Below, piece by piece: positions 9,001 through 12,000 of a stretch of 61,292 bases of DNA. The number at the start of each line of letters is the position of its first letter. Positions within the stretch are counted from its first letter, which is position 1. Origin of the DNA: Escherichia phage PA28; the sequence record KP682381; one strand, written 5' to 3'. Made by a program: the position numbers.

Positions 9001-12000
9001 GCTTCGGCCTGTGTCAGTTCTGACGATGCGCGAATGTCGCGGCGAAATATCTGGGAACAGAGTGGCAATAAGTCGTCATCCCATGTTTTATCCAGGGCGA
9101 TCAGCAGAGTGTTAATCTCCTGCATGGTTTCATCGTTAACCGGAGTGATGTCGCGTTCCGGCTGATGTTCTGCAGTGCATGCGGTATTTTCGACAATGCG
9201 CTCGGCTTCATCCTTGTCATAGATACCAGCAAATCCGAAGGCCAGACGGGCACACTGAATCATGGCTTTATGCCGTAACATCCGTTTGGGATGCGACTGC
9301 CACGGTCCGATGATTTCTTTGCCTTCTCGGGTTTTGAATGGTTCGCGACGGCACTCATCCATCCACTCGGTAACGCAGATCGGATGATTACGGTCCTTGC
9401 GGTAAATCCGGCATGTACAGGATTCATTGTCCTGCTCAAAGTCCATGCCATCAAACTGCTGGTTTTCGTTGATGATGCGGGACCAGCCATCAACGCCCAC
9501 CACCGGAACGATGCCGTTCTGCTTATCAGGGAAGGCGTAAATTTCTTTCGTCCACGGATTAAGGCCGTACTGGTTGGCGACGATCAGCAATGCGATGAAC
9601 TGCGCATCGCTGGCATCACCTTTAAATGCCGTCTGGCGAAGAGTGGTGATCAGTTCCTGTGGGTCGACAGAATCCATGCCGACACGTTCAGCCAGCTTCC
9701 CAGCCAGCGTTGCGAGTGCTGTACTCATCCGTTATATACCTCTGAATCAATATCAACCTGGTGGTGAGCAATGGTTTCAACCATGTACCGGATGTGTTCT
9801 GCCATGCGTTCCTGAAACTCAACATCGTCATCAAACGCACGGGTAATGGCTTTTTTGCTGGCCCCGTGGCGTTGCAAATGATCGATGCATAGCGATTCAA
9901 ACAGGTGCTGGGGCAGGCCTTTTTCCATGTCGTCTGCCAGTTCTGCCTCTTTCTCTTCACGGGCGATCTGCTGGTAGTGACGCGCCCAGCTCTGAGCCTC
10001 AAGACGATCCTGAATGTAATAAGCGTTCATGGCTGAACTCCTGAAAATGGCTGTGAAAATATCGCCCGCGAAATGCCAGGCTGATTAGGAAAACAGGAAA
10101 GGGGGTTAGTGAATGCTTTTGCTTGATCTCAGTTTCTGTATTAATATCCATTTTTTATAAGCGTCGACGGCCTCACGAAACATCTTTTCATCGCCAATAA
10201 AAGTGGCGATAGTGAATTTAGTCTGGATAGCCATAATTGTTTGATCCATTTTTCGGGACTCCTGGCTGATTAAGTATGTCGATAAGGCGTTTCCATCCGT
10301 CACGTAATTTACGGGTAATTCGTTCAAGTAAAGATTCGGAAGGGCAGCCAGCAACAGGCCACCCTGCAATGGCATATTGCATGGTGTGCTCCTTATTTAT
10401 ACATAACGAAAAACGCCTCGAGTGAAGCGTTATTGGTATGCGGTAAAGCCGCGCTTAGGCGGCTGATGTTTCTTCTTTCAGGCTTTCGAGATATTTACGT
10501 GCGTCGTCGTAACATTGGCATTCGCTGTACCAATCCACCCAGCGATCAGTAAGCCCCATCTCTGATAAATCTTCATCGGTAAGGCTCTCATCCCACATCT
10601 CAAGGCCGTTAGCATTGCAGTAATCAGGCTTGATGTTGTTGTCATACTGAAAGGCGTCATAATCAGCCAGTGCGTCCATCAGACGAACACCCTCTTCAAC
10701 ACTTGTCACTTCTACAATGAACGGCTTCATAGGTACTTGCGGGATATGCCAGACACGTAATTTCATATATCCTCCGTCAAAAAAATTGCCCTCACACTGG
10801 AGGGCAAAGAAGATTTCCAATAATCAGAACAAGTCGGCTCCTGTTTAGTTACGAGCGACATTGCTCCGTGTATTCACTCGTTGGAATGAATACACAGTGC
10901 TTATTCGTACTAATAAAATACCCAATTTTCTGTTTCTTGGTTGTGTCCAAAGTTATATTCAATATCTGGTGTTGATGTATCAATATTCTTCATACCATCA
11001 ACAAGAGTTGATACAACAGCCAAATCTTGTTTGATTCTCATTAAATGGTATTTCTTCCGGCGCAATAAACTTTCAATGGCAAGTTTCTTCGTTGGGAATG
11101 CAAAAGATCTTTCTGCATTTTTTGCTACTTTCTTAATTGCATATCTATTTCTCCTTTGTTTCCATTCCTGTAACCACTGATTTGGTGCTGGTTTAAAATT
11201 AACAATCCAATGCGCAGGAACCAACCATGCATAATGCTCTGTCTGATGAAAAGCTATATATTGAAGTGCGAATATTTTTATCCCATCTTCTTCAACTGTC
11301 GCCTGGAATCTCCAGAAAACAGGCATTCCATCATGTTCAGTTTCTGATTCAGGAAAAGGTACGCTCCATGATTTTGTCATATCTCACCTCAAATAAGTGG
11401 TTTGCTGCCTAATTTCATTTTCTGGCGACCAACACAAGTCACACCCGTTTCACTGCGTGGCTTGCGGTAGTAATTTTTGTTAGTCCAAACAATAAAATCT
11501 ATCGAAGTGGGTTATGACCATTTTTTATTTGGATTTCGTTGGTGTGCGTGGTTAACAACTCTGTGCATTATATCCTCATATTTTTCATCTTTAATTTTTT
11601 CAACATCTCGAGGAAATGGTGTTGCTAATGCTTTGTCAACTTTGTTCATTGGGTCTTCATTAATCTTATATTCCGGACCGTCATCTATAGCATTAAATCC
11701 AGGTGTTATACCGTTTTCTAATGCATATGCTATTCTCTTTTCCCATCTCGCTATCCTCCTTCTGTCTCGAGATGTAAGGCTTCTGTCAGATACTTTTCTG
11801 TTTTGTCCGCGATTAGGATTAACATAAATAGTCTTTTTCACCATAAGCATACTCAATAAGTCCATACGGTGGTTTACTGTACAATTTTATTTTTTGAACT
11901 GCATGTATTTTGTTTCCTAATGGGTTTGAATCCTTGTAATAAGTACTTCTGTTTTTTCGCTCGACTTCTTCTGCCTTCTTGTTGCGAAGGCTGCTGAGTG

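Follow-up and report, generated by a model that had tools for sequence, protein, structure and literature searches.

A Nun orthologue and an uncharacterised immediate-early gene as probable separate accessory modules downstream of N in the Stx2-converting Escherichia phage PA28

Nun is usually treated as a curiosity of HK022, a phage without N. Its exclusion of phages carrying lambda-type nut sites needs the Nus factors and residues R322 and D264 of the β′ subunit of RNA polymerase. The protein is made by the repressed HK022 prophage: its arginine-rich motif (ARM) competes with lambda N for binding to the boxB element of the nascent nut RNA of lambda, whilst its C-terminus, together with NusA, NusB, NusE and NusG, inserts in the elongation complex and blocks translocation, after which Mfd releases the arrested complex and lambda early transcription aborts (PMC4496710, PMC5386594). 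Here we describe a 61,292-nucleotide stretch of Escherichia phage PA28 (sequence record KP682381; the whole stretch is referred to below as the window), in which an AT-rich segment at 10910-11865 holds two minus-strand genes, gene A (10910-11380) and gene B (11512-11850), both labelled 'hypothetical protein' in GenBank. Judged by its sequence, gene B can be assigned with high confidence as an orthologue of HK022 Nun, the known transcription-arrest and lambda-exclusion factor, and is called nun in what follows.

We read the AT-rich segment as two independent accessory modules, a nun cassette and gene A, both immediate-early and both lying between N and the first leftward terminator, and we put the probability of this explanation as a whole at roughly 0.8. 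The carrier is an Stx2-converting lambdoid phage of the podovirus type, with the Shiga toxin gene stx2 at 23299-24539, and the window is essentially identical to Escherichia phage 06-3462 (OP797663.1; a 61.3-kb Traversvirus, E. coli O157:H7). An earlier note on this DNA had described two basic minus-strand genes more AT-rich than their neighbours, and both points hold. The GC content of 10910-11865 is 36.5%, against a mean of 49.8% (standard deviation 4.6) for 956-bp windows across the 61 kb; only 0.13% of such windows are as AT-rich, every one of them overlapping this spot, which is itself the lowest. Gene A and nun each have a GC content of 0.357, and at third codon positions (GC3) the values are 0.27 and 0.26 respectively, compared with 0.49-0.58 for gp17, gam, bet and exo, so composition is not uniform with the flanks. 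The predicted isoelectric points (pI) are 9.07 for gene A (156 amino acids) and 9.88 for Nun.

The case for Nun is carried by several comparisons. Gene B matches phrog_5632, 'Nun-like transcription termination factor', over profile positions 1-112 of 112 (E=7e-69), and 101 of 109 residues (92.7%) are identical to chain N of the cryo-electron microscopy structure of Nun with RNA polymerase (PDB 6ALG; E=1e-67). Eight substitutions separate it from HK022 Nun (D10N, S11R, G21S, K43E, V46I, D66N, E84K and V92I); within the ARM, 24 of 26 residues are identical to the boxB-complexed peptide 1HJI_B, the two that differ (G21S and K43E) lying at the peptide ends. Residues 93-109 are those of HK022 and include H93, R94, N97, H98, H100, R102, K106, K107 and W108, which are the residues substitution-tested for arrest (PMC5386594). 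tblastn searches found nun at 92-93% identity in HK022, HK75, O276, mEp235, mEpX1, Kapi1 and PDP110P1 and at 100% in eleven Stx1a-converting phages. Exactly this allele stands in 12 phage records, and 30 genomes of O157, O145 and other backgrounds carry it at 99% identity or more. Overall, nun is present in 220 of 5426 complete E. coli genomes (about 4%), many of them Shiga toxin-producing E. coli (STEC) of O157, O26, O111 or O145. No model for Nun exists in NCBIfam and PADLOC gave no match. Nun and N have no detectable protein similarity, and a recent duplication of the N coding sequence is therefore not the source of nun. Among the RefSeq matches listed, Nun orthologues are labelled 'hypothetical protein', apart from a few called 'transcriptional regulator', by the Prokaryotic Genome Annotation Pipeline (PGAP), and the phi21-type N beside Nun is likewise 'hypothetical protein'.

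By analogy, there is good confidence that gene B would act by the HK022 mechanism. Nun would be produced in the repressed prophage, its ARM would bind the boxB hairpin of the lambda-type nut of a superinfecting or co-resident induced phage, and its C-terminal tail (H98, K106, K107, W108), with NusA, NusB, NusE and NusG, would wedge into the RNA polymerase elongation complex; translocation would halt, the early transcription of the rival would be aborted and the rival excluded. That this allele does exclude rivals we infer from HK022. The carrier itself would be spared. Its N is of the phi21 type, as the earlier note had recognised, its nutL and nutR (boxA at 13915; boxB tcacctctaacagggtga) are both phi21-type, and a pattern search of the 61 kb found no lambda-type boxB (GCCCTGAARAAGGGC); the phage should therefore escape its own Nun. 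Robert and colleagues are said to have found in 1987 that Nun excludes lambda and not phages with phi21 N and nut. If phi21-type nut sites are indeed insensitive, the coexistence of N and Nun in one phage is explained. Potential targets are plentiful: lambda-type nutR occurs in 589 of the 5426 complete E. coli genomes (about 11%), and also in lambda, 434 hybrids, HK542/544, Sf6, SfI, HK446, HK633, mEp213 and others.

The nun gene appears to come with a promoter of its own. The hexamers and spacing of P_Nun are those of the 'nun gene promoter -35/-10' in the record of O276 (HK022-type), with a single substitution in the spacer, and the promoter sits inside the 3′ end of the N gene. About 125 bp 5′ of nun is nearly identical in HK022, HK75, mEp235, mEpX1, Kapi1 and PDP110P1. 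By homology, P_Nun would be weak and constitutive, embedded in a diverged copy of the N 3′ end; King and colleagues reportedly demonstrated P_Nun activity in HK022 in 2000. The last 26-32 nucleotides of N overlap the start of nun, whose open frame reaches a further in-frame ATG at 11865 (11512..11865, a 117-codon frame). Compared with HK022 and mEp235, the interval 11819-11865 carries a 1-nucleotide deletion (GGTGCTT to GG-ACTT) that shifts the end of N so that it runs 26-32 nucleotides into nun; together with a C-to-T change, this deletion creates the ATG at 11865, a few nucleotides past the expected P_Nun start. It is possible that Nun is made here with a 7-15-residue N-terminal extension, or from a near-leaderless mRNA.

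At the other end of nun, a terminator has been lost. The intact form reads CCCACTTCGGTGGGTTTTTT in mEp235, Kapi1, mEpX1, PDP110P1 and an O26 prophage and CCCGCTCAGGCGGGTTT in HK022 and O276, whilst in the window and in the Stx1a phages the 3′ arm is mutated (GGTGGGTT to ATAGA--). The corresponding RNAs of the other phages fold into hairpins of -11 and -15.1 kcal/mol, whereas folding of 11490-11512 from the window gave no hairpin (-6 kcal/mol, z=-0.36). The terminator-less allele is that of the Stx1a phages and of 30 among the 220 complete E. coli genomes with nun (O157:H7, O145 and others). A terminator scan found none on the minus strand between pL and 10807; with the nun terminator destroyed and the next one at 10807-10786, a transcript from P_Nun could therefore run through gene A, and gene A may, we infer from the sequence, receive some low-level transcription from this promoter in the lysogen.

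Between the lost terminator and gene A lies a relic, the former 3′ end of a phi21-type N gene. It is nearly identical to the end of the intact phi21-type N that stands directly 5′ of gene A in other prophages (for example at locus L023), and is a diverged direct repeat of the 3′ end of the live N (about 11840-11945). The nun gene and its promoter are thus bracketed by a duplicated N tail and look like an insertion, a layout suggesting that nun originated by insertion into a duplicated 3′ end of N; the relic is the likely recombination joint of the nun and gene-A modules. Homology to HK022 spans 11969 to 11506. The HK022 locus (L003:2890-3000, equivalent to 11969-11866 of the window) retains about 100 bp of the 3′ end of a phi21/mEp235-type N, P_Nun included, despite having no N gene. 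This remnant suggests that the N-nun tandem came first and that HK022 has lost the 5′ part of N.

That the two genes belong to different modules is seen in where their homologies begin and end. An mEp235-like block covers 12348..11388 (nutL, N, nun and the relic) at 90.8% DNA identity, and a block shared with 933W, HK97 and H-19B covers 11442..10780 (the relic, gene A and the terminator linker). The two blocks overlap only at 11442-11388, within the N-tail relic, which on sequence grounds is the probable crossover point. The genes also travel apart. Among 80 IMG/VR loci carrying an identical gene A protein, the gene 5′ of gene A is a 933W-type N in about 30, an intact phi21-type N in about 17, a lambda-type N in three and nun in 11, with others in the remainder. 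In HK75, HK022, mEp235, Kapi1 and mEpX1, nun is followed by other cargo or by none.

Downstream of gene A, what is shared is the linker. The intrinsic terminator there is the first terminator-like site on the leftward strand past pL and therefore closes the N-nun-gene A unit; in HK97 a 'putative terminator' is annotated at the same place, after gp45, and the HK75 record has two terminators annotated between nun and cIII, in the linker interval. Between the terminator and gene A is a 14-bp hairpin, conserved in HK022, HK75 and mEp235, that might serve in RNA processing or stability or act as a weak terminator; hairpin and terminator together (10770-10915) have a minimum free energy of -49.7 kcal/mol (z=-4.9). 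The linker as a whole (10901..10782) is 96-97% identical in mEp235 and HK022 though the cargo differs: elsewhere the gene A slot holds a phrog_1965 protein (mEp235, Kapi1), is empty (HK75) or contains IS903 (HK022). Since the phrog_1965 cargo stands between the same N-tail relic and terminator linker, this is a hot-swappable cargo site. The phrog_1965 proteins are 207-227 amino acids long (mEp235, L002:3202-3825; Kapi1, L009:1925-2608), and the Kapi1 copy is annotated as Nmad5 (nucleotide-modification-associated). Coordinates of the features are collected in Table 1.

Table 1. Features of the early-left segment of the window (all on the minus strand)
Feature	Position	Strand	Description and basis
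nun (gene B)	11512..11850	-	GenBank coding sequence, 112 aa (amino acids); HK022-equivalent ATG at 11844 gives 110 aa (109 after Met removal)
gene A	10910..11380	-	156 aa; phrog_1636; 933W L0079 / HK97 gp45 family
P_Nun	11876..11904	-	-35 ATGCAG 11904..11899; 17-bp spacer; -10 TACAGT 11881..11876
Degenerate nun terminator remnant	11490..11512	-	ACCCACTTCGATAGA--TTTTATTG
phi21-type N 3′-end relic	11389..11473	-	ends ...YYRKPRSETGVTCVGRQKMKLGSKPLI*; read directly from sequence
Hairpin directly 3′ of gene A	10866..10897	-	14-bp perfect; CUGUGUAUUCAUUC-CAAC-GAGUGAAUACACGG; no U-run
Intrinsic terminator	10779..10807	-	UUGCCCUC-CAGUGU-GAGGGCAA + U7; terminator scan, fold
phi21-type N gene	11819..12157	-	ARM 21/22 identical to phi21 N peptide PDB 1NYB; phrog_271; GenBank coding sequence
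nutL	12268..12308	-	boxA-like GGCTCTTTA 12308..12300; phi21-type boxB TCTCAACCTAACCGTTGAGA 12287..12268
P22 gp17 / lambda Ea10-like gene	10455-10766	-	PF17420 'Superinfection exclusion gene product 17', E=4e-55; phrog_1510

Gene A belongs to a phage-only family without a named domain. The protein matches phrog_1636, a family without defined function, over its full length (E=3e-112), is 100% identical to L0079 of 933W and 99.4% identical to gp45 of HK97, and is encoded in 81 phage records and in 598 of the 5426 E. coli genomes (about 11%; up to four copies per genome), always labelled 'hypothetical'. Close relatives (55-85% identity) are found in Enterobacterales prophages, and a profile search of 1.84 billion representatives returned 87 relatives of about 130-160 amino acids. 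The remote members share the patterns YR...G...HET and K.V.K....RFAF.TK..A..L..RK...L.HL together with a C-terminal aromatic residue; two multi-domain 'relatives', P0066 and P0080, were rejected as repeat artefacts. Scans of gene A against Pfam, NCBIfam and PADLOC gave chance-level matches only (the only one in PADLOC being Cas1_II, E=0.018, 12 bits), a Pfam scan of 49 diverse family members gave no significant match, the names supplied by the sources for its relatives are all 'hypothetical' or 'uncharacterised', and a PDB sequence search with the single sequence and with an 85-sequence profile found nothing below E=0.1. Of the two genes that the earlier note could not place, therefore, one is the known Nun and the other is without a match in these four collections.

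The remote homologues are always in early operons of temperate or other phages: beside xis-int in a Pectobacterium prophage, as the first early-operon gene of phage Bas81, as the second in a Vibrio phage, and, in marine prophages, surrounded by genes for methylases, HNH proteins and recombination. Their neighbours are generic early genes (methylases, HNH, xis/int), with no consistent partner. A C5 DNA methylase (PF00145) lies within a few genes of the homologue in all four prophage neighbourhoods examined (L096, L098, L100 and L101), and is probably typical early-region content.

Expression places gene A with N. Published RNA-seq of EDL933, the 933W lysogen, has gene A tracking N, with about 45-fold induction by antibiotics; its uninduced baseline is 274 RPKM (reads per kilobase per million mapped reads), and genes beyond the leftward terminator are lower in LB (64, 17 and 81). 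Expression thus follows N and prophage induction and not the lysogenic state. Because of this N-like behaviour and because the stretch from pL to the 3′ end of gene A is free of terminator-like sites, we class it as an immediate-early, induction-responsive gene. It would be co-transcribed with N ahead of any terminator, and so made at once on infection or induction, and would be translated from a strong ribosome-binding site: the start codon is 8 nucleotides past the stop of the N relic, and the Shine-Dalgarno sequence GAGGTGA (11390-11384) overlaps that stop.

An AlphaFold2 model built from an 85-sequence alignment is a single domain of high confidence (predicted local distance difference test score, pLDDT, 95.8; predicted template modelling score, pTM, 0.83). 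It predicts strands at residues 19-30, 33-46 and 50-55, followed by short helices; a further strand (83-86) precedes a helix of 33 residues (98-130), and the C-terminal tail is ordered. The protein is compact, combines a sheet of three strands with a long helix and is strongly basic at its centre. The charge is concentrated in residues 61-120 (net +4 to +6 per 20-residue window), the ends being acidic, and the median pI of the family is 8.9. Comparison of the model with the PDB gave no structural match, all neighbours falling below significance, and in BFVD it matches uncharacterised phage proteins only. These observations support gene A as an immediate-early accessory protein of lytic development. 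Because the centre is basic, we suggest, tentatively, a role in host takeover or counter-defence, in which the protein would bind nucleic acid or some acidic partner early in lytic growth.

A different possibility is that gene A is a developmental regulator, DNA-binding or related to transcription elongation and functionally tied to N. Its basic centre would suit such a role, as would its position almost always directly 3′ of N, whether that N is of the 933W, phi21 or lambda type, and its close translational coupling to the N relic. The remote homologues, however, occur in phages and prophages with no N-type antiterminator annotated or detected nearby, and hhalign comparisons with the AP2 domain and the lambda Int arm-binding domain returned probabilities below 1%, leading us to reject both as assignments. 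We consider a regulator of this kind unlikely.

We give somewhat less credence still to gene A as a prophage defence or superinfection-exclusion gene of the lysogenic-conversion type, like lambda sieB or rex at comparable positions. The idea draws on the hot-swappable slot with its conserved linkers and its Nmad5-like phrog_1965 alternative in mEp235 and Kapi1, on an AT-richness common to many morons, on the sizeable baseline expression in uninduced EDL933 and on the prospect that, in the window lineage, gene A could be read from a constitutive P_Nun. Yet in 933W, HK97 and H-19B gene A has no promoter of its own, starting 8 nucleotides past the N-relic stop and 58 nucleotides past N, and its expression parallels N. 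It has no PADLOC match and no membrane segment, unlike SieB-type proteins, the model being soluble and compact; remote homologues are found in phages, Bas81 for example, whose examined stretch has neither an integrase nor a repressor annotated, and the BFVD matches come from several unrelated phages. The suggestion in the earlier note that the segment carries exclusion or anti-defence cargo is therefore correct for nun, whilst gene A matches no exclusion, defence or anti-defence family in Pfam, NCBIfam, PADLOC or the PDB. Nor does either gene match PF17420 or the Ssb/Ea10 family, so that both were rejected as P22 gp17-type or Ssb/Ea10-type genes; gene A matches no housekeeping function.

Could nun be an inactive passenger, unexpressed or non-functional, in a phage that already has N? 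Its start overlaps N, its terminator has decayed, it carries eight substitutions relative to HK022 and it is annotated 'hypothetical' everywhere. Against this, the reading frame is unbroken, every residue tested for function is conserved, as are both P_Nun hexamers, the allele recurs unchanged or nearly so across backgrounds (12 phage records, 30 genomes at 99% or more), and N-nun phages are common (mEp235, mEpX1, Kapi1, O26 prophages). This conservation, with the frequency of N-nun phages, points to purifying selection and makes an inactive nun very unlikely.

Hardly tenable is the view that nun and gene A form one co-acquired, co-regulated exclusion or anti-defence operon in which gene A works with Nun: the two are same-strand neighbours of equal AT-richness, the intervening terminator is missing in the window lineage and their adjacency recurs in O26 prophages and in 11 of the 80 IMG/VR loci, but distribution largely refutes it, gene A being found in 598 genomes and nun in 220, gene A lacking nun in 933W, HK97, H-19B and the majority of loci, nun lacking gene A in HK022, HK75, mEp235, mEpX1 and Kapi1, most nun-gene A arrangements having an intact terminator and N relic between the two, and the homology blocks having different partners. 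The 'two-gene cargo' of the earlier note accordingly does not survive as a unit, given the different relatives and mosaic boundaries of its members and the terminator that separates them in most other phages.

Several points weigh against our reading of two independent modules with the activities proposed above. G21S and K43E lie within the ARM peptide and could alter its affinity for RNA; exclusion by this allele is a prediction from sequence; and the insensitivity of phi21-type nut sites to Nun comes from older literature. P_Nun is a poor match to consensus and was missed by a generic consensus promoter scan, and its presumed activity here rests on work in HK022; Rho or a weak U-rich stretch may still stop read-through from it. 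For gene A, the basic patch is the sole hint of nucleic-acid binding, and the structural neighbours suggested by the model are below significance.

A bolder extension of the two-module reading would have gene A found a new class of immediate-early effectors with a fold unseen in the PDB, basic proteins associated with nucleic acid or polymerase that are produced along with N and serve counter-defence or host takeover, and would have loss of the nun terminator rewire it to P_Nun-driven expression in lysogens of the O157/O145 Stx lineage. We regard this as speculative and improbable. If true, the Stx prophage would constitutively make an anti-lambda arrest factor and the gene A effector, shaping competition between lambdoid prophages in enterohaemorrhagic E. 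coli (EHEC).

Nun itself is already known, and the annotations of mEp235 and mEpX1 already include the N-nun tandem. What may be new is the presence of nun as a 'hypothetical' gene in Stx phages and in 4% of E. coli, the location of the promoter within N, the duplication of the N tail and the loss of the terminator in this lineage; a literature search found no paper on nun in Stx phages or on the other three, and searches on L0079, HK97 gp45, 'Nun-like' and Nun in Stx phages yielded nothing relevant. Nun is thus more widespread than usually assumed, occurring intact and with its promoter in a Stx phage that retains N and nut. Because lambda-type nut is common (about 11% of genomes), Nun could affect which lambdoid phages can superinfect, or be induced in, EHEC carrying multiple prophages, an influence that would bear on the ecology of Stx phages. 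Gene A, for its part, is a practical experimental target, being carried by about 11% of E. coli genomes and by both HK97 and 933W, strongly induced with N, and modelled with confidence yet without a known fold; it is a worthwhile one, though one of many such uncharacterised families.

Some features of the surroundings may be recorded here. The two genes do lie between N and the cIII-kil-gam-bet-exo block, as the earlier note had stated, but a third gene in the interval, the gp17/Ea10-like gene, was omitted there. That gene has terminators on either side (10807-10786 and 10431-10412), and its counterpart in 933W is annotated 'putative ssb'. Rfam identifies Lambda_thermo, the cIII thermoregulator, at the start of cIII (10337-10395, minus strand; 88.5 bits, E=1e-21), and found no RNA family at 10400-13000. 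Plus-strand open reading frames within 10910-11865 have no PHROG match and were taken as spurious. To the right of pL/nutL, a 73-amino-acid gene on the plus strand (12491-12712; phrog_3946, function unassigned) lies between pL/nutL and cI, convergent with cI, at the position of rexAB in lambda and stk in 933W; GC skew is strongly positive there, and a cI-side terminator is found nearby at 12740-12723.

How, then, does the locus compare with the systems already described? Its Nun resembles that of HK022 in its 92.7% identity over 109 residues, its ARM and C-terminal arrest residues, its promoter hexamers and its position just downstream of pL. HK022, however, has put RNAs and about 100 bp of N relic only, whereas PA28 has a functional-looking phi21-type N and nut; the PA28 allele also differs in its eight substitutions (two of them, G21S and K43E, in the ARM), in the additional in-frame ATG at 11865 and in the destruction of the terminator 3′ of nun. 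A closer parallel is offered by mEp235, mEpX1, Kapi1 and the O26/O111 prophages, with their succession of nutL, a phi21/HK620-like N, nun, an N-tail relic, cargo and a conserved terminator linker. Those phages retain the nun terminator hairpin, their N stops before nun instead of being extended into it by a 1-nucleotide indel, and mEp235 and Kapi1 have the phrog_1965 protein as cargo behind the relic in place of gene A. In 933W and HK97, gene A has the same flanks as in PA28, a 62-bp N-tail relic upstream and the terminator linker downstream, but stands directly 3′ of N, whilst in PA28 nun intervenes, with P_Nun upstream and no terminator between. Finally, the ral/sieB region of lambda and the ral-sieB-17 slot of P22 occupy the same map position, between N (gene 24) and cIII, and a homologue of P22 gene 17 adjoins the PA28 genes (10455-10766), although neither gene A nor nun has any sequence or family similarity to Ral, SieB or Ea10.

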